From a virus, in IMG/VR virus record IMGVR_UViG_3300006037_000005, positions 62,599-126,598 of that record: a stretch of DNA of 64,000 nt; one strand, given 5' to 3'. A program made the translations under genes and the position numbers. This document shows positions 22,666-62,810 of this stretch, in pieces; the stretch's first letter is position 1; each line of letters begins with the position of its first letter. The notes beneath the pieces are model-generated. The model saw only the letters and a program-made list of their open reading frames with translations, was not told where the DNA came from and searched no databases.

Positions 22666-24501
22666 ATGAACACCAATGATATTAAAATAGGAAAAGAATT
22701 TATTGAAATTATACCGAACCAAGAATATTCCTTGAAGAAAGCATATCTTGGTTTTTATTGCCCCAAATGTTTAAAAGAAAAAACCATATGTTTATTGTCT
22801 GTTTTAAAAGATTATACCAATTCTGTTGGTTGTGGTTGTAGAAAGAAAATAGGGAAGCCTTTTATAAAATCAAAACCATTATCTGAATCAGAATGGGAAG
22901 AAATATTTTCAAAAATACCCATACAGCCTTTGAATTTTAATGATCTTCTTGGTTTTACAATATCGGCTAAAAAACAAATCCCTTTTATTTGTGGTTGTGG
23001 TAAGATTTTTGAATATAATATTGGAAAGATAACAAGTTCCCATACAAAAACTTGTGGTAAATGCAATATAGTAAATCCAAAAGAAATCTCTTACAGCAAC
23101 GGCATTTTGTATAATGGTACTTCTGATTCGATATCTTCAACTTTATCAAAAAATGAAGATTTTATTTGTGGTTGTGGTAATCAATTTAAAGCACCCTTTA
23201 ATTGTGTTGTTTCGGGGAAACAAAAATCTTGTGGTAAATGCAAAATTCTTTCATACCCATCATATATCGGAAAAACATTTGGTAGACTTAAAATTTTAGA
23301 ATTCATTGGATCAAAAGGCAGAATAAATGATCCAAAGAAATCGGAGAATTTCTTCAAATGTGAATGTTCGTGTGGCAATGTAAAAGAAATAACAACATCT
23401 GCAATATTAAGAAATGGATCAAAAGGAAAAATTTCTTGTGGTAAATGTTCAAATGTTGCAAAAGAAATTAGAATGGCTAATCCTTTTCCAGGTTTGCATG
23501 ATTACAAAAAATTGGAACTTTGGTTTGAAACACAATTCATAAAACCAATTGTTCCTATCAATGAATACACAATAAACAAAAACAAAATACCAATGCACTG
23601 TAAATTGTGCGGTGACGATTTTGATACATCTTTATATGATATTAAAAGAGGCAAAATTTTGAGTTGTGGTTGTTTATCAAACAGAATATCTCAAATGAAC
23701 ACCGAAGTTGGAACATTTATAAAAGAACTTGGCTTTGAAATCCAATATGAACATTATCTTGGTGAAAATTTACATTCTGATATTTTTGTTAAGAATAAAA
23801 ACCTTGTGATAGAAATGAACGGAATTTATTATCACAAAGAGGCTACAAGATTAAGTGAGATTAAAAAATTCAATAAAGCAAAAGAAATTGGATATGATTT
23901 TTTAATGTTCTATGAAGATGAATGGAGAGATAAGAGAGATATTTGCAAAAATCTCATTAAACAAAAACTTGGTATAAATTCTGATATTATAAAATTAAGA
24001 CCAAAGGATTGTGAAGTTAGAATTGTGAAATCACCATTGGTTAAAGAATTGTTTGAAAAATTCCATATACAAGGTTACAGACCATCAAGTTTTAATATAG
24101 CTGTCTATCATAAAGATAATCTAATAGCCTGTATGGCAATTAATAGACCATCAAGACAAAATATAAAAGAAGATTATGAAATTTCAAGAATGGTTTGTGA
24201 TACGAAATATAGGGTGAACGGACTTTGGTCTTTTTTGTTCAAATATATTGAAAGAACAAATCTGTTTACTGGAACTATTACAACATTTTCTGAAAACAGA
24301 ATATCAAACGGAAACATATATTTAAATATAGGAATGGTGCATTGTGGTAATGTGAAATCAGATTATTATTGGTGTGACACAAGGAACAGATTCCACAAAT
24401 CTATGATGAGAGGTAAAAATGAAACTTTGATTAACAAAGAAAAAGGCTACCACAAGATTTTTGATTTGGGAAAGAAGAAATTCTCAACAGAGATCTTGTG
24501 A
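22666..24501 (+). CDS. putative homing endonuclease: Cys-rich zinc-ribbon repeats, a PD-(D/E)xK (DUF559/Vsr-like) nuclease and a GNAT-like C-terminal domain
   Basis: many CxCG/SCGxC repeats; DIF...VIEMNG.YYH...FYEDEW; H(I)QG...YEISR; IFD.G. Confidence 0.75.
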   Translation: MNTNDIKIGKEFIEIIPNQEYSLKKAYLGFYCPKCLKEKTICLLSVLKDYTNSVGCGCRKKIGKPFIKSKPLSESEWEEIFSKIPIQPLNFNDLLGFTISAKKQIPFICGCGKIFEYNIGKITSSHTKTCGKCNIVNPKEISYSNGILYNGTSDSISSTLSKNEDFICGCGNQFKAPFNCVVSGKQKSCGKCKILSYPSYIGKTFGRLKILEFIGSKGRINDPKKSENFFKCECSCGNVKEITTSAILRNGSKGKISCGKCSNVAKEIRMANPFPGLHDYKKLELWFETQFIKPIVPINEYTINKNKIPMHCKLCGDDFDTSLYDIKRGKILSCGCLSNRISQMNTEVGTFIKELGFEIQYEHYLGENLHSDIFVKNKNLVIEMNGIYYHKEATRLSEIKKFNKAKEIGYDFLMFYEDEWRDKRDICKNLIKQKLGINSDIIKLRPKDCEVRIVKSPLVKELFEKFHIQGYRPSSFNIAVYHKDNLIACMAINRPSRQNIKEDYEISRMVCDTKYRVNGLWSFLFKYIERTNLFTGTITTFSENRISNGNIYLNIGMVHCGNVKSDYYWCDTRNRFHKSMMRGKNETLINKEKGYHKIFDLGKKKFSTEIL

Positions 24502-24518: not shown

Positions 24519-25536
24519 TTATTGTCTGAATTTTGAAAGTCTCGATTCTGAAATAGATTTCTTTGGTTTTATCTCTCCGTTATATTCATCTATGGTAATA
24601 TCTGTCTTACTACCAAAATCCCCAATAAATGTTTCTTTATCGAAATCCCAATAGCAAACATCGGCATTGTTGATGAAATTATAGAGTGTTCCATCATCGT
24701 ATTTTTGGATGTCAGATTTTTCTATACCACTATATGGTGGTGCATATAGCATAACTTGTTTGTCTGAATTTGTTGATATATTATACCAAACACCATCAGA
24801 TCCCATAGCTTCTTCTATATCACGCTTTGAATCAATATTCCAGCCAGTATCATTCTGTTTTCTATATAATAGATGCATTTCATAGAGATCACCAGAATCC
24901 TCCAAATTAGATTCTGATATTTTACCCAAGTATTTTACTTCTTCTTTCGTCAACAATCTTGAAACAATACTGTCATCAATGTAACCATTATCATCAATAT
25001 AATCGTTCATTTTGTTTAATATTGGTTCTGTTATCCTATTAACTGGCATATTTTTTATTTTTTTTACCAAATCTTGTTGAATTTTTGTAAAATTCATTCC
25101 AGAATTTCTTTCTATCTTTATCATCCATAGTTGATTCTTTAATTTTGCCACCATTTTTATATGCTTCAATCTCTTCTTTAGAAAAATCAGAAACGATTTT
25201 AGACATTTTTGGTGCACCTTCAAGAGAAGTCAATTGATTATCGGAACAATAGAATCTTTCACATTCTTTTGGTGCACCCTGTAGCGAGGTTAATTCGTTG
25301 CGGTCACAATAAAACCTCCAGGATTCTTTTGGTGAACCTTTTAATGAAGTTAATTTATTGTTAGAACAATAAAAAACCCCATCTACAATTCCGAATTGAA
25401 CTGGAATTTCCTTTAATCCTTTATTTGAGATATCAACATACCCATTAACGTCGACTGTTAGATCGTCATTAATTATGTAATTATTGATACCCATTTCATT
25501 AAGCCATACTCGAATCTCTTCTCTGCTTTTTAACAT
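24519..25536 (-). CDS. LRR-family modular protein split by a frameshift near 25050-25090 (ORFs 25039-25536 and 24519-25223)
   Basis: the LRR N-terminal part and the C-terminal part ending ISESRLSKFRQ are offset by one base across poly-A runs. Confidence 0.7.
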
Positions 25537-27976: not shown

Positions 27977-28309
27977 TTAAGAACGTCTGTGCTTAATATC
28001 TCCTGACATAGTAGAAATAGAACCACCAACCATATTGCAATCAACATCACCAGACATTGTAGAAATAGAGCCATCAACATCGCCAGTAACTTCAACATCA
28101 CCACTTTGAGTTGAAATTGATTTTACACTTCCTTCAACTGATACCTTGTTGCAAGCGTCTACCTTCAATTGTTCAATATTACCAACAACTGAAATATTAA
28201 TTTCTTTGCTGTCAGGCGTTACATCTTTGCCGTTAATTATGACTTTGCCATTTGTTACTACAATACTATTACCTGAATATGTATTGCCATTAATTGTAAT
28301 TGTACTCAT
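27977..28309 (-). CDS. beta-solenoid repeat protein (SISTMSGDV repeats)
   Basis: repeated V.GSIST.SGDV units. Confidence 0.75.
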   Translation of the reverse strand: MSTITINGNTYSGNSIVVTNGKVIINGKDVTPDSKEINISVVGNIEQLKVDACNKVSVEGSVKSISTQSGDVEVTGDVDGSISTMSGDVDCNMVGGSISTMSGDIKHRRS

Positions 28310-28940: not shown

Positions 28941-29577
28941 TTTGTATCAAAAAATCTAAATCTTTTATCATGTCTTTTTCCAAATCAGCCCATGTGCTCC
29001 AATTGTGTGCTGGATTCTTTAATTCGAGATTTGGATAAGTACCTTTGTACTTTTTGATAAAATCTTCCTTTGAAAATCTTGGTTTATGTATATTGTAATA
29101 GATTTTAAGTTTTCTAATATCATCGTTTGATGCATATTCTGATATTTTATTACAAACATCATCAAAATCAAATTCTACAATGTGGCGAAAACCAGGATCT
29201 ACAACCATATTTGTATCTTTCACAAAATTCTGTGAGATTTCCCCATTGTAATATAACAGGATTTTATGATTTCCAATACCCAAATCAAGATAAGATCTAA
29301 AGAATTTCATATTGAATCTATCCTTTTTGTGTTCTTTTTCCATCTCTTTGGCTTTAATATAACAATTCAAAAGCGATTGATCTTGTTCAGATAAGATACC
29401 AGAATTTGCTCCACAACAGAAATATGAAAAACCAAAATCTTCTAAAGGCAGATATGATACTGGTGGTTTTATATCAGATTCAAGCGATATCACATGGTTT
29501 GAATTGTAGTATAAACTAAAATTTTTGTTAGAATTCCAATATTCAAGATTCATTGATAAGCATCTCATATTGCTCAT
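28930..29577 (-). CDS. hypothetical protein
   Basis: 215 aa ORF. Confidence 0.65.
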   Translation of the reverse strand: MSNMRCLSMNLEYWNSNKNFSLYYNSNHVISLESDIKPPVSYLPLEDFGFSYFCCGANSGILSEQDQSLLNCYIKAKEMEKEHKKDRFNMKFFRSYLDLGIGNHKILLYYNGEISQNFVKDTNMVVDPGFRHIVEFDFDDVCNKISEYASNDDIRKLKIYYNIHKPRFSKEDFIKKYKGTYPNLELKNPAHNWSTWADLEKDMIKDLDFLIQNGR

Positions 29578-31073
29578 TTAGAATTTATTATTTTTGTGAT
29601 TTCATTGTCTATTTTAACAATATAAACACCTTGTTGTTCTATGAACATTTTGTTATCAAAAATTTTGTAATCCACATCATATCCTTGTATATTTTTAACA
29701 AAACCTATTTGGCCTTTTATATTAAAATAACCATCTTGGCTAGGATTCGGATAGATCATATCATTTTGTATAGTATATTCATCTATAACGTTCACTATGG
29801 CTTGATTACCTATTGTGATTCTATGAAATGAATAATATCTTTGTTCATAAAATGTTATGCTACCATCTGTGTATTGAATATTATCAGATAAAACAGAACC
29901 CCCATCAATTGTTATATTATCATCATATTTTATGGTTTTCATACTAGACAAATCATCACTGATTCTCACTAAATATCTACCATCATTGCTATATCCTACA
30001 AAATCTAAATCACCATTGTTGCTTGCCAAGAATTTTTTAATATACAATTGTGAGTTAGATGCAGTGCTTATGTTCATAAGATTACCGATAGCACCAGTAG
30101 TTCCATCCATTGTCGTCAGAAATTGGATTTCTGGTCTATCCATGTCTCTGCCAAGTAAATATATTTTGTTGGATTTTGAGAAAATCGGTTGTGGACCAAC
30201 ACCATAAGAATAAAAATTTGTACTAAAATTTTTAATATTTAGATTTGTATCAAGTTTTATCATACGTGGATTAAGTCGATAGGTATCAGAACCAGATAGA
30301 TAGATATCAGAATCATTTATGAATATTGAGAAATTATATTGTTTATCTTGGTAGAGTGCTATAACAGATCCAACACTGTCTATTTTATAATTTTGTAGTA
30401 TTCTATATTTTGTTAAAATGTGTTTATACATTGTAACAGTTTTGTTGTTGACAATTTTATATTCAGATGTTGTACTTTGAACATATAAAGAATTTTTGTA
30501 TTTGGTAGATTTCAATTCAGAATTTTCAAAATAGCCATAACCATAATCATATGGTAAAAATTTGTTATTGGCTTTGTTGGTTGAAATTATATCACCATTT
30601 AGTGGATTTATTACCATATTTTTCACACAACGTTCATTGGGCTTTGTAACAATTTTACCTGAGTCAATAAGAACCCAATTTACCATCACATAGTTTTGTA
30701 TGGTATCAACCATATACATCAAATTCAATTTACCATTATTGTATGAGAAATCAACGAGATCGCAATTTTGGTAATATTTGTCTGTTCTTTGTACCTTCAG
30801 AATATTTGTATTCCAGACTGTAACCCCATCAACGATTTTAAATATTGAGAAATTATAAAGACTGTCTTTTTCAGAGATTACTGTGTTGTTGAAAATACCA
30901 CCCCTATACTTGGCTTTTGATAGATAATATCTTTCGTTGCCAACTTCTATGACTTTCTGAATGTTGATACCCAAATAATCTTTTTGAATCGATTCATTAG
31001 AAACTTGTGAGAACATCTGATTTGATACCATAATTGATATCAAGATTGCGATTACTTTAGAGAGATTTTTCAT
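29574..31073 (-). CDS. secreted beta-rich protein with Sec signal peptide and T9SS (Por) C-terminal sorting domain
   Basis: MKNLSKVIAILISIMVSNQMFSQ signal; C-terminal IYPNP...GVYIVKI...KII. Confidence 0.82.
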   Translation of the reverse strand: MKNLSKVIAILISIMVSNQMFSQVSNESIQKDYLGINIQKVIEVGNERYYLSKAKYRGGIFNNTVISEKDSLYNFSIFKIVDGVTVWNTNILKVQRTDKYYQNCDLVDFSYNNGKLNLMYMVDTIQNYVMVNWVLIDSGKIVTKPNERCVKNMVINPLNGDIISTNKANNKFLPYDYGYGYFENSELKSTKYKNSLYVQSTTSEYKIVNNKTVTMYKHILTKYRILQNYKIDSVGSVIALYQDKQYNFSIFINDSDIYLSGSDTYRLNPRMIKLDTNLNIKNFSTNFYSYGVGPQPIFSKSNKIYLLGRDMDRPEIQFLTTMDGTTGAIGNLMNISTASNSQLYIKKFLASNNGDLDFVGYSNDGRYLVRISDDLSSMKTIKYDDNITIDGGSVLSDNIQYTDGSITFYEQRYYSFHRITIGNQAIVNVIDEYTIQNDMIYPNPSQDGYFNIKGQIGFVKNIQGYDVDYKIFDNKMFIEQQGVYIVKIDNEITKIINSK

Positions 31074-31193: not shown

Positions 31194-31490
31194 TTATTTT
31201 GTCGTGACAGATTTGTTGTTATCATATCCAACCATAGCAATTTCTTGCAAGAATTGCTTAATGTTTTTATATAGCTGTGATTCGGTATTGAAATGTAAAA
31301 CGACAGTAGCATCTATTCTACAATATGTGTAGCCAGTTGTGCAATTGGTGATAAATTCTATATCCGTGTCTTCTATTGAAAAAATATTTGTTGTCACTGA
31401 AAAATCTGTTGCGTTTTCTATATTAATATCATGTTCGTGTGATATCAATCTCTCGATCAAAGTCTGAATTCTTGTTATCTTTGGTTTCAT
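31194..31490 (-). CDS. hypothetical protein
   Basis: ORF. Confidence 0.6.
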   Translation of the reverse strand: MKPKITRIQTLIERLISHEHDINIENATDFSVTTNIFSIEDTDIEFITNCTTGYTYCRIDATVVLHFNTESQLYKNIKQFLQEIAMVGYDNNKSVTTK

Positions 31491-31867
31491 ATTTCTATTT
31501 TGACATTTTGGAAATAAACAACGGAATCGTCAATTATTCTGAGAAGAGATTGTTTCTTTTTATCGGGGAGTTCTGATTCTTTAACAAGCTTTATTGAGAG
31601 TTCAAATTGTTCCTGTTCTACCAAGCCTTCATAATCGGAGGTGTTTGGAGATGATAAAAATTGTAAATTTATATCGTGTTCTATATAAAATTTATTAGCT
31701 ACAGCTTTTATAATAGGGATATGGGCTTCGTTTGTTGTTATGAAATTGACATATTTATAATTTTCAAATTTCAAGCTTTCTATGCAGATCTGGATTTGTT
31801 TATTTGTATTAAATGATACATCGAAATGTAAATTTATCTTTGGTACTTTGTGTGATTTTTTAGCCAT
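31487..31867 (-). CDS. hypothetical protein (ATG start MAKKS)
   Basis: ORF; the longer start in the track lies within a terminator. Confidence 0.6.
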   Translation of the reverse strand: MAKKSHKVPKINLHFDVSFNTNKQIQICIESLKFENYKYVNFITTNEAHIPIIKAVANKFYIEHDINLQFLSSPNTSDYEGLVEQEQFELSIKLVKESELPDKKKQSLLRIIDDSVVYFQNVKIEI

Positions 31868-31875
31868 ATAAAAAC

Positions 31876-31907
31876 AATTTTGACCAAACAATTGTTTGGT
31901 CAAAATT
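31876..31907 (-). terminator. terminator closing an LRR cassette
   Basis: perfect 32-bp palindrome aattttgaccaaacaattgtttggtcaaaatt followed by a U-rich tract on the minus strand. Confidence 0.75.
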
Positions 31908-31933
31908 TTATATTAGGAAATTGTTATGGTTTC

Positions 31934-32407
31934 TTATAACAATCTATATGAATCTCTATCATAAGAATTCTGAGTAACCGATACAGATTTATTTAAATTA
32001 CTAATAAGTTGTGATATAGTTTTAGGGTTTTTATTTATCTTACTATCATATTCATTACCTGTTAAAAGAGTATAACTAAAATGATTAATCAGTTCATCCA
32101 ATGTACCAGTTGTTTCCCTGTCCCTATCTTTTCGTGTTTTAACAATAGTATATGTTGATTGTGTCTTTGATTCTTATACTCTAAATTTTGAAAGTCTTGT
32201 TGGTTTCAAAGATTCAACAATTTTAAGAAAATATTCCATTCTAATTCTATCTATATTTTCTTTTTTATCGAAAGTGTCTATATAATCTCTCAATTCTGAT
32301 ATTGAGACATCAGCATCTTTATAATATTTCAAATCTCCAGATTTATCACAATAATCCATAGATATAAATGATATTTCTGTGTTGTCTTCCAAATTGTCTA
32401 TATGTTT
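31934..32407 (-). other. two start-less coding modules in frame with the upstream LRR gene
   Basis: KHIDNLEDNT...IVESLKPTRLSKFRV* followed by ESKTQSTYTIVKT...GTLDELINHFSYTL...YRLL*. Confidence 0.7.
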
Positions 32408-32959
32408 TTAATCTTTCCTAAATTTTGAAAGTCTTGATTCTTTGATTTTTCCACCATTTTTATAAGCTTCAATTTCTTCTTTAGAAAAATCCGATATTAT
32501 ATCAGAAGATTTTGGTGCACCTTCAAGGGAAGTTAATTTATTATTATAACAATGAATCTCTCTACATTCTTTTGGTACAAATTTCAATGTGGTCAATTTA
32601 TTGTTGTAACAATCAAATTCTGTGCATTCTTTTGGTGCAAATTCTAATGAAGTTAATTTATTGTTGGAACAATTGAAATACCAACATTTTTGTGGTGCAC
32701 CCACTAGCGAAGTCAATTTATTATGTGAACAATAAAACCCAACACATTCTCTTGGTGATCCTTTTAATGAAGTTAATTTATTTCTTGAACAATCAAAATC
32801 ACGTACCACAATTCCAAATTGAACTGGAATTTCTACTAATTTTTTGTTTGATATTTTTACAGTACCATCAACATCAACTGTTAGATCATCATTGATTGTG
32901 TAATTTTTGATTCTCATTTCGTCAAGCCATGCTTGAATTTCTTCTTTGGTTTTTAACAT
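32408..32959 (-). CDS. LRR protein with C-terminal IKES-RLSKFR tag
   Basis: 21-aa C..NKLTSL..AP repeats and the family N-cap MLKTKEEIQAWLDEM. Confidence 0.85.
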   Translation of the reverse strand: MLKTKEEIQAWLDEMRIKNYTINDDLTVDVDGTVKISNKKLVEIPVQFGIVVRDFDCSRNKLTSLKGSPRECVGFYCSHNKLTSLVGAPQKCWYFNCSNNKLTSLEFAPKECTEFDCYNNKLTTLKFVPKECREIHCYNNKLTSLEGAPKSSDIISDFSKEEIEAYKNGGKIKESRLSKFRKD

Positions 32960-32982
32960 AATGTTTTTGGTTTCTATTTTAT

Positions 32983-33333
32983 TTAATACAAATCATCAAC
33001 ACCAACACCTTTCATATTTTCATGGAATTGCGATGGATCAAAGAATGTTTGAATTCTTGTTGTGTCATCGAAATATCTACCAAGAACTTCTGAATCTGTC
33101 ATCAAAATTCTATCCTCTGATTCTTCATTCAAGAAATAAACACCAGAATATTGAGTAAAAAATATTCTATCTCCAACCTTGAGGCTTTTAACATTGTCAC
33201 CGATTGATTCTATTGTACCAGAATTTGGTCTGTGTTGTCTTTGTGAACCAAATATATTTATGAAAATACCAGATTTTGTTGTGATTGGTTGACCGTCTTG
33301 AACAACAATTATATTATTTTTGAGAGGCTTCAT
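32983..33333 (-). CDS. groES: GroES/Cpn10 co-chaperonin (gp31-like role)
   Basis: MKPL.N.IIV, TKSGI, G.I.SIG..V..LKVGDRI.F..YSG. Confidence 0.88.
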   Translation of the reverse strand: MKPLKNNIIVVQDGQPITTKSGIFINIFGSQRQHRPNSGTIESIGDNVKSLKVGDRIFFTQYSGVYFLNEESEDRILMTDSEVLGRYFDDTTRIQTFFDPSQFHENMKGVGVDDLY

Positions 33334-33343
33334 ATTGTGAAAA

Positions 33344-33379
33344 ACAATTTTGACCAAGTAATTACTTAGTCAAAATTGT
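33344..33379 (-). terminator. terminator closing an LRR cassette, homologous to 31876-31907
   Basis: acaattttgaccaagtaattacttagtcaaaattgt near-palindrome with a U tract on the minus strand. Confidence 0.75.
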
Positions 33380-33406
33380 AATAAAGATTATTTTAAAAGT
33401 TTCTTT

Positions 33407-34267
33407 TTATATTCTAAATTTCGAAAGTCTTGTTGGTTTTAAAGATTCAACAATTTTATCATCATATGACCCGCCCCCATCTTCTACACGTTGCAAGACA
33501 TATTCTTTCAATTGATCTAAATGTTTTCTGTTGCCTGTTTCGGCTTTATAGAATAATTTCAAGTTGGTATACCAACTTGTTGCTTTGTATTCTTTACCAC
33601 CAACTTTTGCTATAAAATTGACACAAGGTAAATGATCATCAGTAAATTCATCAATTATTTCTATAGAATCTATTTTACCACCGTTTTTAAGTGCTTTGGC
33701 AAAATCGCTTGCTATATCATAATCATCTATGAATTGTTCAAATTCATCTTCGTCTGTTATTTCTGGCATCTCTTTCTTTGTCTCCAAATGATTTGAAATA
33801 ATTTTAGCACCTTTCGGTGCACCTTCAAGTGAAGTTAATGGGTTATTGGAACAATCAATTCTTTCGCAGTATTCAGGTGCACTTTCCAATGAAGTCAATT
33901 GATTATTGCGACAATCAATTGACTCACAGTGTTTTGGTGCACCTTCAAGCGAAGTCAATTTATTATAACCACAATGAAAATGTACACATTTTTCTGGTGC
34001 AAATTCAAGCGAAGTTAATTCATTATCTACACAGTTGAAAACTCTACATTCTCTTGGTGATCCTTTCAAAGAGGTTAATTTGTTACCATAGACCGAAAAA
34101 ATATCTTTTACAACCCCGAATTGAACAGGGATTTTTGTTAATTTTCTCCATAATAGTCCAACACCGTCAACACCATCAACGTCAACTGTTAAATCACTAT
34201 TTATAGTGTAATTTTTAATCTCCATTTTATCAAGCCATGCCTGAATTTCTTCTTTAGTCTTTAACAT
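33407..34267 (-). CDS. LRR protein with an extra acidic C-terminal module and IVES-LKPTRLSKFR tag
   Basis: same N-cap and repeats as 32408-32959; unrelated C-terminal domain of about 110 aa. Confidence 0.85.
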   Translation of the reverse strand: MLKTKEEIQAWLDKMEIKNYTINSDLTVDVDGVDGVGLLWRKLTKIPVQFGVVKDIFSVYGNKLTSLKGSPRECRVFNCVDNELTSLEFAPEKCVHFHCGYNKLTSLEGAPKHCESIDCRNNQLTSLESAPEYCERIDCSNNPLTSLEGAPKGAKIISNHLETKKEMPEITDEDEFEQFIDDYDIASDFAKALKNGGKIDSIEIIDEFTDDHLPCVNFIAKVGGKEYKATSWYTNLKLFYKAETGNRKHLDQLKEYVLQRVEDGGGSYDDKIVESLKPTRLSKFRI

Positions 34268-34626
34268 AATGTTTTTGATTTCTATTTTATTTAATGCCAA
34301 ATATTCTCTATGTTTCTATAGGGTTGTGATATAACTGTTTGGTGATAACTATTTTATCTCTTTATAAGAAACCAGACATAAATAGATATATACATCAATA
34401 AAAACATCCCTAAAATGAATATAGCAATCAAAAATAGTATTTTATTGAAAGATAGCATGGAAGCTATTGAAAAGATCTCAGAATCTCAGTCAACCTTGAT
34501 GGCAAAGAGCTATTATACCTTGGAAAAATTAAAAAAAACCAATAAAGAATTCAGAGAGTTCCTAAACACAGTAAATGATAAACGAACTAACTAAGGAAAT
34601 ATTACTAATGGTAATTATTTTTATCT

Positions 34627-36671: not shown

Positions 36672-37102
36672 TTATTTTCTAAATTTTGAAAGTCTTGATT
36701 CCTCAATTTTACCACCATTTTTATAAGCTTCAACCTCTTCTTTAGAAAAATCTGATATTATATCAGCAAATTTTGGTGCGCCTTCTAAAGAAGTTAATTC
36801 ATTCCATGAACAACTAAAATATTGACAATATTTAGGTGAACCTTCAAGAGAAGTTAATCTGTTATAAGAACAGCTAAATTCTTTACATTCTCTTGGAGAA
36901 CCTTTCAATGAAGTTAATTTATCATTGTGTGAACAATCAAACCATTTTTTAACAACCCCAAATTGAACAGGGATTTCTGTTAAATCTTTTTCCGTGATAT
37001 TAACATATCCATCAACATCAACTGTTAAATCTTTATTGATCTTGTAATTATTGATACCCATTTCATCAAGCCAGGCTTGAATTTCTTCTTTATTTTTAGC
37101 AT
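36672..37102 (-). CDS. LRR protein with IEES-RLSKFR tag; a 1-nt deletion separates the ATG at 37102 from the body
   Basis: atgctaaaaataaagaagaaatt is one base shorter than the paralog starts; ORF track 36672-37061. Confidence 0.75.
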
Positions 37103-39171: not shown

Positions 39172-39948
39172 TTATTCTCTAAATTTTGAAAGTCTTGATT
39201 CTTTAATTTGATTACCAATAATTTTTGCATCACCAAATCTTGATTTTTTCATTATAACAGATTTTGGTACAGAAATTTCCTCTATATCGTTTTGTTCACA
39301 TCTGACAATTTGGATATTTGGTGGTAAATCAAGATTTTCTATCATATTGTTTGAACAAGTCAAATATTTAACTGACTGTGGTAATGAAAGTTCTGTTAAT
39401 CTATTTTGGTCGCATTGTACTTCAACAACACCATCTTGTAAATCAAGTTTTCTTAATTTGTTATTAAAAACAATAAGGGTTCTAACAGATTTTGGTATAG
39501 AAAGCTCTGATATGCTGTTTGTTGAACAATCAAGATATTTAATACCATCTGGAAGATCCAAACTTTTGATTCTGTTTTTATAACAAGAAAGCTCTATCAT
39601 CGTATTTGGTACGGCAAGTTCTGTCAACGAGTTGTTCGAACAATACAACTCTGTCACCCCCTCTGATATGACAAGATTTGTTAGTTTGTTGTCAGTGCAC
39701 ATAACATACACCACTGATTTTGGCACAATGAGTTCTGTTAATTTGTTGTAATCGCAACAAACTTGTGTAACACCCTCTGGTATGGTAAGTTCAACCAAAT
39801 CTTTATTTGAACAACTCAACCAAGCCTTTTCATCTGATTTTATTTCATCTTTGTTATTAAAGATAATTTTTTGATCACGTGTTAGCCCATTTGTAATATC
39901 AAATTCTATTGTTTCGCCGTTTTTGTCTTTGCCTATCGCCTTAAACAT
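39172..39948 (-). CDS. LRR protein of a second class (20-aa L.IP..V..L.C..N.L) with IKES-RLSKFR tag
   Basis: repeat pattern and C-terminus. Confidence 0.85.
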   Translation of the reverse strand: MFKAIGKDKNGETIEFDITNGLTRDQKIIFNNKDEIKSDEKAWLSCSNKDLVELTIPEGVTQVCCDYNKLTELIVPKSVVYVMCTDNKLTNLVISEGVTELYCSNNSLTELAVPNTMIELSCYKNRIKSLDLPDGIKYLDCSTNSISELSIPKSVRTLIVFNNKLRKLDLQDGVVEVQCDQNRLTELSLPQSVKYLTCSNNMIENLDLPPNIQIVRCEQNDIEEISVPKSVIMKKSRFGDAKIIGNQIKESRLSKFRE

Positions 39949-62552: not shown

Positions 62553-62810
62553 GTGTATATATTCTATCACAAAGTGGTTTCTTCTATGGATTGTACAACA
62601 GTGAAGTTTAGGGGTCAAGAATTGAGCATAAAGAATGATACATTTTCTAACCCCCTTTTGAGATTAATGTTATCCTATATCGAAATTGTTGATATAAAAC
62701 ATGGTGAAGGTCTTATCTACTATGAAAGACTCAAAGATAATTGGAAACTTGAGATAGAAGATAAAGAATTGGATAACCAAATAAGAAAAATTTTAGCAAC
62801 AAGAAAATGA
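62553..62810 (+). CDS. hypothetical protein
   Basis: ORF; start uncertain. Confidence 0.5.
   Translation: MYIFYHKVVSSMDCTTVKFRGQELSIKNDTFSNPLLRLMLSYIEIVDIKHGEGLIYYERLKDNWKLEIEDKELDNQIRKILATRK

Follow-up and report, generated by a model that had tools for sequence, protein, structure and literature searches.

Why do three apparent coding segments of a phage genome follow one another in a single reading frame, with nothing but TAA codons between them? The question is raised by the minus strand of a 64,000-nucleotide (nt) stretch, referred to here as the window, which is the second half of the 126,598-nt IMG/VR virus record IMGVR_UViG_3300006037_000005 (positions 62,599 to 126,598). The frame that starts at window position 32959 and runs to 31937 encodes 341 residues and contains exactly two in-frame TAA codons, at residues 184 (32408-32410) and 262 (32174-32176), before it is closed by a final TAA at 31934-31936. 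This is the frame with two internal stops that the original prediction, made from the letters alone, had described for 32959-31934.

The three segments, here called modules 1, 2 and 3, are a complete leucine-rich repeat (LRR) gene, a short open stretch and an intact member of a phage protein family that lacks a start codon. Modules 1 and 2 end in the same short peptide, referred to as the tag, which is found at the C-terminus of six otherwise unrelated open reading frames (ORFs) of this phage and is most likely a functional peptide. The stack is very unlikely to be a translated polyprotein. We place roughly even confidence in a reading where it arose as a side effect when modules were shuffled by recombination at the repeats formed by the tag and the junction, with module 3 as an orphaned former C-terminal domain.

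The stacked reading frame

Module 1 (32408-32959, minus strand) is the complete gene of a 183-residue LRR protein, LRR183, with an ATG at 32959 and the C-terminus ...KNGGKIKESRLSKFRKD. The protein matches Pfam LRR_4 (E = 3e-07; 30.9 bits against a cut-off of 27) and phrog_21719 (E = 1.4e-15). Module 2 (32177-32407, minus strand) is an ORFan of 77 open codons, which reads KHIDNLED...KIVESLKPTRLSKFRV and thus ends in its own tag and stop, and module 3 (31937-32173, minus strand) comprises 79 codons, from ESKTQSTYT to DRDSYRLL. The order of the modules had been predicted correctly, as had the terminator behind them; the latter is a terminator-like hairpin of 14 pairs with a T run at 31876-31907 (minus strand).

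Both downstream stretches resemble coding DNA beyond chance by codon usage. On a scale where true genes have a mean score of 0.35 (5th percentile 0.18) and wrong frames a mean of -0.03 (95th percentile 0.16, 99th percentile 0.25), modules 2 and 3 reach 0.50 and 0.22, respectively. Same-frame stacking by itself is common in this tightly packed genome. The record contains 26 pairs of adjacent open stretches that share a frame, and in 15 of these an ATG is found within 8 codons; both junctions of the stack belong to the other 11.

The 3' half of the hairpin, TTGGTCAAAATTGTTTTT, is repeated at 33340-33357, upstream of a GroES-like gene, and the region 31400-34500 holds five terminator-like sites where 0.7 are expected from shuffles. 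The two copies of the element bracket the GroES-like gene, LRR183, module 2 and module 3, which therefore look like one unit. An independent assembly of the source run breaks at the copy at 31876-31907. Both copies (31870-31913 and 33340-33390) sit 2-7 nt before the next ATG, that of a 126-residue ORF and that of the GroES-like gene, respectively, and the element could combine terminator and start-region roles.

A shared C-terminal tag

The consensus of the tag peptide is I-x-E-S-(LKPT)-RLSKFR-x-stop. Its six carriers are LRR183, module 2, two further LRR paralogues referred to as p286 and p129, a 258-residue LRR protein of another repeat type and a 192-residue protein. In the 126.6-kb record the hexapeptide RLSKFR occurs six times; in all six cases one or two residues and a stop follow, and I-x-E-S precedes it, either directly or with LKPT between. 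The first copy in the stack (32418-32440, minus strand) is the short form GAATCAAGACTTTCAAAATTTAG, which encodes ES-RLSKFR, while the second (32181-32224, minus strand) is the long form KIVES-LKPT-RLSKFR, identical to the tail of p286 in 15 of 16 residues. At the level of DNA, the minus strand carries all six copies of the 17-mer AGACTTTCAAAATTTAG that are found when one mismatch is allowed, and a tolerance of three mismatches yields 10 matches against 1.64 expected, a number that none of 100 shuffles reached.

Three nucleotide differences are found among the tag copies and all three are synonymous; therefore, it is the peptide that is kept. The DNA is nevertheless more uniform than codon bias explains: the Leu codon is CTT in six of six copies, where CTT accounts for 26% of the Leu codons genome-wide, and identical 23-mers of the tag lie between unrelated flanks. 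The copies would therefore be of recent common descent and have moved between genes. The tag, viewed as a DNA recombination site in the original prediction, is in the first place a conserved C-terminal peptide.

A more radical version of that view, in which the conserved 17-23 nt are mainly a DNA or RNA element (a recombinase or nuclease site, or one for transcript processing or regulation) and the peptide is incidental, appears improbable. The near identity of six copies with unrelated flanks, the constant CTT codon and the common orientation would fit such an element; yet the synonymous nature of every difference and the placement of every copy in frame at the extreme end of an ORF are features of a peptide. 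Furthermore, the capsid protein of this phage repeats the peptide motif with different codons (TTG for Leu and AGT for Ser), and the likeness between capsid and tag is therefore one at the peptide level. Nor is the sequence after the tag consistent, since a hairpin may come next, or a gene in convergent orientation, or an ATG at once, and no match to Rfam was obtained. The tag DNA gave no match in 2.9 million viral contigs and six in 241 million metagenome records, all of them chance matches (G+C content 0.36-0.45); one of these lies inside a topoisomerase-like ORF and none at the end of a gene.

When the last 44 residues of LRR183 were searched against protein sequences, the only matches were the four paralogues of this phage. 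A seventh copy was considered at 2254-2270 ("RLSKLR"), where three mismatches and a frame full of stops are found, and was treated as a chance match. An inversion-type shufflon was ruled out because all copies of the tag are direct repeats.

Read-through and recoding

The original prediction had offered read-through to a polyprotein as an alternative. In this scenario translation would pass the TAA codons by design, or with the help of a suppressor tRNA whose gene lies in the 40% of the genome that the record lacks; from the resulting chain of LRR protein, module 2 and module 3, the head protease might release the parts by cutting at I-x-E-S. The three parts do share one frame without a spacer, and module 3 is intact without having a start. 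Moreover, p286 provides a fused architecture of LRR, module and tag without an internal stop, and about 60% of the genome is contained in the record. Passages of two reports also indicate that the Glu-Ser site of the tag is of the kind cut by T4-type head proteases (PMC5694885, PMC10052503).

These points have to be set against the use of stop codons in the phage: TAA is the most common one, found at the end of 102 of 187 long open frames, and general suppression would therefore be costly. The only tRNAs encoded in the 126.6 kb, i.e., in 60% of the genome, are those for Met and Cys, none of them a suppressor. On the grounds of stop usage and the tRNA scan of these 126.6 kb, general recoding of TAA or a suppressor tRNA was rejected. 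Inspection by eye of the stack, which contains no Rfam element, revealed neither a slippery site nor a context known for read-through. No in-frame coding sequence comes after four of the six tags, and the tag with its TAA is therefore a normal gene end. Finally, none of 92 candidates was a longer protein containing module 3 at E <= 1e-8, which is weak evidence. Taken together, translation through the two stops is very unlikely. Ribosomal frameshifting or hopping at the tag was likewise rejected; by eye, no in-frame slippery heptamer is present, the -1 frame meets a TAG within the tag, and a hop between identical tags would add nothing.

Extension of a C-terminus by recoding is known in phages, e.g., the A1 read-through protein of Q-beta and the frameshift product 10B of T7, where a leaky UGA or a slippery site gives one defined extension. 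The stack resembles these cases in having an in-frame, start-less coding piece past a stop. It differs from them in that there are two TAA codons and no signal, and in that genes end normally at the other four tags.

Probable exchange of pieces among the LRR paralogues

The LRR paralogues offer a view of what has happened around the tag. In p286 (33407-34267, minus strand; LRR_4 score 27.1 bits) the LRR part is followed by the linker ...KNGGKI, an unrelated module of about 70 residues and the long tag KIVESLKPTRLSKFRI. The short paralogue p129 (36672-37061, minus strand) ends in ...KNGGKIEESRLSKFRK and scores 14.8 bits, below the LRR_4 cut-off of 27. A 1-nt deletion in a run of A has shifted the ancestral ATG of p129 (37102-37100) out of frame; the ORF now starts at an internal Met, with loss of 13 conserved N-terminal residues, and the ATG and its upstream context are kept (37085-37102). 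A third paralogue, LRR165 (25039-25536, minus strand), reads KNGGKIKES and then TMDD...STRFGKKNKKYAS in place of the tag, i.e., it departs from the other paralogues exactly after GAATCA (25132-25137). It overlaps the next gene by 59 nt and contains a run of eight A at 25058-25065.

The 30-codon extension of LRR165 (25039-25137) includes an in-frame ATG, the A8 run and a segment ...STRFGKKN... that can be aligned with ...PTRLSKFR.... This extension may represent a seventh tag that has decayed, or else a fusion, by frameshift, with the gene of the 192-residue tagged protein, referred to as the module-4 gene (24519-25097, minus strand, ATG at 25097), which is not an LRR gene and ends in ...KKSISESRLSKFRQ; its product has no match in Pfam or PHROG. 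The 258-residue LRR protein (39172-39948, minus strand; LRR_4 E = 7e-08, 32.9 bits) ends in ...IIGNQIKESRLSKFRE, and its gene is found directly upstream of one for a baseplate-hub-like protein, identified by matches to baseplate-hub PHROGs.

Common to the paralogues is the junction ...KNGGKI-x-ES, and what comes after it varies: the tag at once in LRR183 and p129, a module of about 70 residues with the long tag in p286, and a short unrelated stretch in LRR165. In our reading, the family exchanges and loses pieces at the junction and at the tag.

An alignment of the four paralogues retrieved seven loci in other large phages, in which the tails of the LRR proteins differ and RLSKFR is absent; a 297-residue query retrieved no related viral locus. 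In other large phages (loci L001, L002 and L004) tandem arrays of LRR paralogues carry an N-terminal head ...W-L-x-x-M-x-I-x-N-Y-T-I..., as in the present phage. In these arrays each lineage has a conserved short C-terminal tail of its own (...GDFIWK or ...IRSDLS before the stop). A tail specific to the lineage may therefore be a common trait of expanded LRR families.

Module 3, an intact domain without a start

Module 3 belongs to an unnamed family of phage proteins of about 75-100 residues. A search for the family gave 204 proteins at E <= 1e-3, and the counts given here refer to the best 150 of these, 148 of which are not ORFs of the window itself. All 148 cover module 3, the best of them with E = 1.5e-15 and 57% identity. 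In these proteins the domain stands alone in 89 cases, at the N-terminal end in 23, at the C-terminal end in 9 and internally in 27. At least 31 residues of other sequence precede it in 36 of the 148; homologues fused to other N-termini, for which the original prediction had proposed a search, thus exist for module 3.

The family has the motif G-T-L-x-E-L-x-x-Y-F-S-Y-T-L, and each of its seven near-invariant residues (G23, T24, L28, Y34, L36, G39 and P50) is kept in module 3. Against a family profile built without it, module 3 obtains 113 bits and rank 12 of 89, i.e., above the family median and with no sign of decay. AlphaFold2 predicts the fold strand-strand-helix-helix-helix-strand at a predicted local distance difference test (pLDDT) value of 93.4. 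The family has no entry in Pfam or PHROG, and the same is true for module 2. A Foldseek search of module 3 against the PDB gave nothing at E <= 1e-3 and the best VIA match had Z = 4.2; matches in BFVD were uncharacterized phage proteins of 82-89 residues (E from 8e-07 to 2.5e-05), and scores from a search of the Atlas (at most 0.80) are leads only.

In contrast to this intact body, no start is found. Module 3 contains no ATG and no GTG, and its sole TTG is codon 25 (32101), inside the fold, from where translation would drop the first two strands. The seven codons from the TAA to Tyr-Thr-Ile of the first strand include neither ATG, GTG nor TTG. For comparison, in six of seven family genes from viral contigs, which were found with a degenerate DNA pattern, an ATG of their own lies 3-13 residues before the first strand. 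What is present at the head of module 3, directly past the stop of module 2, is GAATCAA (32167-32173, minus strand), the first seven nucleotides of the tag and of the Glu-Ser junction. By chance GAATCA(A) would be expected at 0.0003-0.0007 per position; Glu-Ser follows the stop in none of the other 187 long ORFs. The description of a third module of 79 residues that has no ATG and begins with the junction residues Glu-Ser was thus accurate. Because module 3 is an intact family copy without a start, is headed by GAATCAA and has homologues where other sequence precedes the domain, it fits an orphaned former C-terminal domain.

Module 2, a probable mini-gene

Module 2 probably stands as a tagged mini-gene of its own, with independent translation from a predicted TTG start at 32392. 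This TTG (32392-32390) is codon 6, located 15 nt past the upstream stop, and would give a product of 72 residues; its context is A-rich and scores 3.39, the median of real starts. The first ATG of module 2 is codon 17, and an ATA (32401-32399) is found at the usual ATG site of the packed genes of this phage. Both JGI and Logan/ENA call module 2 as a 72-residue ORF. Of the silent or orphan C-terminal cassettes seen in the original prediction, then, module 3 remains, while module 2 has a tag, a stop and a plausible start of its own. The availability of functional starts had been named as evidence against silent cassettes, and in this respect, too, the two modules would part ways.

Among the same 150 best of 204 matches, obtained from 1.84 billion representatives, the only match confined to module 2 is its own ORF, and among these matches the proposed search for homologues with other N-termini thus gave none for this module. 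About 10 alignments to module-3 homologues extend into the second half of module 2; those inspected show no tag and no convincing likeness to module 2, as judged by eye without statistics. Module 2 and p286 have their last 16 residues in common, as noted above, and their cores are unrelated (p = 0.54). More generally, no homology was detected among the cores of module 2, the p286 module, module 4 and module 3 (p = 0.32-0.89). A likeness between the heads of module 2 and the p286 module (I-D-x-L/F-x-D), seen by eye, was not significant, and a search of the Atlas with module 2 gave no usable match.

A 215-nt contig from another freshwater study (depth 2.6) matches 32264-32409, up to the stop codon of LRR183, with four differences and then continues with 69 nt that do not match the tail of LRR183. 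This divergence fits module 2 as a movable unit. Two points weigh against the reading of module 2 as a gene of its own, namely that its TTG start is a prediction and that AlphaFold2, run without an alignment, returns a pLDDT of 56.6, i.e., a poor fold, for a sequence that has no homologues.

How the stack may have arisen

In the reading we favor, the near-identical 17-23 nt copies of the tag and the ...KI-x-ES junction would serve as short homologies for recombination or deletion, such that the end of one gene could be joined to the C-terminal part of another at tag or junction. Module 3 would once have formed, as a domain attached at ...KIKES, the C-terminus of a protein. Deletion or exchange at the few bases AAGAATCAA that the head of module 3 has in common with the junction of LRR183 would then have put module 3 behind the stop of module 2, where it would be orphaned and probably untranslated. 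T4 is well known for deletions that occur between short direct repeats.

Because the three parts lie in one frame, a new deletion between GAATCA copies could produce an in-frame fusion of LRR183 with module 3 or of module 2 with module 3. Such an event would be a possible and unprogrammed way in which new variants could originate. Only to this extent might the modules be called recruitable cassettes, as suggested in the original prediction.

Several observations weigh against this origin by shuffling. The retained junction homology amounts to 7-9 nt, and no fused or deleted allele was seen among the contigs compared; the one contig that crosses the junction of modules 2 and 3 has 24 letters on one side, where the bridging rule is 31. 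Module 3 shows no decay, and a silent relic must therefore be recent, or else be expressed in an unseen way. The chance that two neighbors lie in the same frame is 1/9. Finally, ATA (32401-32399) and AAG (32167-32165) are found at the usual ATG positions of packed genes, and a pair of ordinary genes with mutated starts is therefore a live rival.

According to this rival, which we regard as unlikely, modules 2 and 3 are ordinary packed small genes that share a frame by chance; their starts are unusual (TTG or ATA for module 2, AAG for module 3) or mutated from ATG, GAATCAA is a coincidence, and nothing has been displaced. The family to which module 3 belongs is consistent with this view, given the 89 standalone matches among the 148 and the six of seven viral-contig genes described above, and the family Met aligns approximately at the AAG of module 3. 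The ATA and AAG lie 3 and 2 codons past the respective stops, i.e., within the 0-8 codons where an ATG is found in 15 of the 26 same-frame pairs. The sequence aaaaacatATA resembles aaaaacattATG, the start context of the LRR paralogues, and the context of the TTG of module 2 is good. Point lesions, e.g., the deletion in p129, are also known from the tagged LRR family. However, two neighboring start losses would be needed with both bodies intact, and the rival requires a chance GAATCA(A) after the stop, at the frequency given above and seen in none of the 187 other cases, in addition to a shared frame. We also know of no use of AAG as a bacterial start codon.

The original prediction had likened modules 2 and 3 to the orphan modules of polymorphic toxin loci. 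Module 3 does resemble the orphan cdiA-CT/cdiI modules of systems for contact-dependent growth inhibition (CDI) and orphan rhs-CT/rhsI modules, as these are portrayed in passages of one report, where a start-less C-terminal piece lies downstream of a full gene in the same orientation, a bit of the conserved junction is kept and fusion by recombination is possible (PMC4927057). The likeness does not extend further. In CDI and Rhs systems each orphan module consists of a toxin and its cognate immunity gene, whereas here the modules abut with no gene between them, and no toxin domain was identified in modules 2 and 3 using Pfam and PHROGs; the fold of module 3 matches no solved toxin in Foldseek and VIA. 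In those systems a conserved pre-toxin region is part of a large delivered protein, whereas here the upstream homology is 7-9 nt and the LRR proteins have 129-286 residues, with no secretion or delivery domain found in the upstream LRR genes. The present modules are, moreover, located in a phage genome, and module 2 has its own tag, stop and likely start. The analogy with polymorphic toxins was therefore abandoned.

Prohead targeting as a possible function

What could such a peptide do? Clues are found in the head genes of the phage. The record encodes a major capsid protein of the gp23 family (563 residues; outside the window, G000:C1 18673-20364, locus L014 8674-10365), which matches PF07068 (E = 4.8e-12, above the cut-off) and phrog_28442 (E = 3.7e-62). 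The gene directly upstream encodes a protein of 682 residues (outside the window, G000:C1 16572-18620, locus L014 6573-8621), of which residues 1-250 match phrog_207, "head maturation protease" (E = 2.6e-28). This protease appears to be fused to a long, acidic, coiled-coil-like C-terminal part, i.e., to be a protease-scaffold fusion. Genes for tail sheath, baseplate hub and head-tail adaptor are also present, as identified from PHROG matches. The GroES-like co-chaperonin gene (32983-33333, minus strand) of the hairpin-bracketed unit matches Cpn10 (E = 4.5e-11) and a "head morphogenesis" PHROG, like gp31 of T4. From the capsid, protease, tail sheath, baseplate hub, adaptor and GroES-like genes, the phage is therefore a T4-like myovirus. 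In T4 the motif (L/I)-x-E marks cleavage by the prohead protease, and the N-terminal extension of gp23 is where the cleaved propeptide is located.

A profile of the six tags was scanned over 34,813 positions in 142 ORFs of at least 100 residues. The best match outside the tags is found at residue 30 of the capsid protein (...KRISESKLSKIAE...; ...KFKRISESKLSKIAEM...), i.e., in an N-terminal extension, as the match to the Pfam Gp23 family begins about 75 residues further downstream. The capsid protein and the neighboring protease/scaffold protein account for three of the seven top non-tag matches, with 3.4% of all residues between them. In addition, three patterns derived from the tag match, outside the tags, only these two proteins, where shuffles gave means of 0.00, 0.12 and 0.14. 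The sites are the one in the capsid protein, ...KKISKISKFRKISEG... at residue 250 of the protease/scaffold protein and MANEIKESLKFF at the N-terminus of the latter. Several I-x-E-[SGA] sites are also seen in the two proteins: IKES at residue 5, KISKFRKISEG at 250-260 and ISES at 651 of the protease, and ISES at residue 31 of the capsid protein.

According to passages of two reports, cleavage after Glu is common to the prohead proteases of T4, phiKZ and SPN3US, with Ser preferred at P1' in SPN3US, and propeptides are cut at several sites (PMC5694885, PMC10052503). Related phage proteases are said in one of these passages to "cleave C-terminal to glutamic acid" (PMC5694885). The internal proteins of T4 are portrayed in part of another report as diverse, with a capsid targeting sequence (CTS) as the only common part (PMC3012670). 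The tag-like motifs in capsid and protease, the Glu-cutting proteases and the label of the T4 internal proteins led us to the tentative proposal that the tag may be a C-terminal prohead-targeting signal, removed by the head protease at I-x-E|S.

The likeness to T4 internal proteins (IPI-III and Alt) and to the propeptides of giant phages, as far as the passages cited describe them, lies in a short peptide that is the sole common part of diverse accessory proteins (PMC3012670), in a T4-like phage that has a gp23-type capsid protein and a predicted head maturation protease. In both, the peptide adjoins a hydrophobic-x-Glu site (PMC3012670, PMC5694885, PMC10052503); in the present phage it is a putative cleavage site. 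The difference lies in placement. While the CTS and the substrate propeptides are N-terminal, the tag is found at the extreme C-terminus in six of six carriers, beyond the putative cut site. In SPN3US, as stated in a passage on mapped sites, 13 of 14 remove N-terminal propeptides and the sole C-terminal one belongs to the protease itself (PMC10052503).

This difference in placement from all known capsid-targeting propeptides is one of several points that weigh against a role in head targeting. The margin of the profile scan is small, with 28.3 for the capsid protein and 26.3 for unrelated matches (the tail sheath and others), and the tag-derived patterns were chosen after the sequences had been seen. 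Assignment of the protease to a family is weak: Peptidase_S80 scores 17.5 bits against a cut-off of 23.4, and PF03420, the T4 protease family, gives no match, where controls were equally silent. In the one related phage, of five records, for which gp23 was found, the capsid N-terminus by eye has no likeness to the LRR tails. Two further analyses speak neither way: the capsid protein found no sequence match in the PDB, and prediction of a complex between the C-terminal 44 residues of LRR183 and the protease/scaffold protein, run without control pairs, gave a score of 0.00. To our knowledge, a resemblance of this type between a tag and the capsid N-terminus has not been described for T4, for which no search was made.

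A fuller version of the head-targeting proposal, which is possible and which we hold somewhat less firmly still, would be the following. The tag would be a cargo tag that imitates the N-terminal extension of the capsid protein (...RISESKLSKI...) and the protease/scaffold protein, carries accessory proteins (the LRR proteins, module 2 and the 192-residue protein) to the prohead core and is clipped after Glu by the head protease, after which the cargo would stay in the head and enter the host with the DNA; the repeats would double as exchange points for swapping cargo modules, and the start-less module would be a cargo domain that has been either stored or discarded. Unrelated cargo is directed into an HK97-fold shell by short C-terminal cargo-loading peptides in encapsulins. 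Encapsulin peptides attach to the shell protein of a bacterial compartment and stay uncut, whereas the tag, whose binding is hypothetical, resembles the capsid protein's own N-terminal extension and not a known loading peptide.

Significance

The internal proteins of T4 are the classic example of diverse anti-host proteins with only a short capsid label in common. Such labels are known chiefly from T-even and phiKZ-like phages, where they are N-terminal. The uncultured freshwater phage described here is a compact case, with a tail of 8-16 residues on six unrelated ORFs, a look-alike in the capsid protein and scars of exchange at the tail. If the tag does serve to load heads, phages would possess two independent types of cargo tag, and the new one would offer a natural handle for the packaging of foreign proteins; the shared C-terminal tag with its capsid look-alike is the part that is worth an experiment. 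The stacked modules alone are an evolutionary leftover of modest interest, which illustrates that short shared sequences can strand intact start-less domains; gene callers then report truncated ORFs, here of 72 and 55 residues.

Other features of the phage and the window

The completeness of the record was estimated at 60% and its G+C content is 29-33%. Freshwater metagenomes contain near-identical DNA, and no RNA data set was listed among those that hold it. Contigs of the probable source run are identical to the locus, and most of the differences listed for the contigs compared stem from paralogues that were matched to one another. Exact copies of the LRR183 protein are present on four contigs, the longest of 204,113 nt, and contigs up to this length hold exact copies of the LRR183 and module 2 proteins, which suggests a genome size of roughly 204 kb, i.e., a jumbo phage.

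Three further ORFs of the window deserve mention. An ORF of 499 residues (29574-31073, minus strand) has an N-terminal signal-like segment and no Pfam match at E <= 0.01; its last 70 or so residues by eye resemble a type IX secretion sorting domain of Bacteroidota, a hint at the host that is unsupported. The 611-residue ORF at 22666-24501 (plus strand), convergent with the gene of the 192-residue tagged protein, contains many C-x-x-C pairs. Repeated units similar to G-S-I-S-T-M-S-G-D-V make up a 110-residue ORF (27977-28309, minus strand) that has no Pfam match, and in an unrelated viral contig (L017 1-160) a gene of the module-3 family is preceded, at a distance of about 60 codons, by one for a similar repeat protein.

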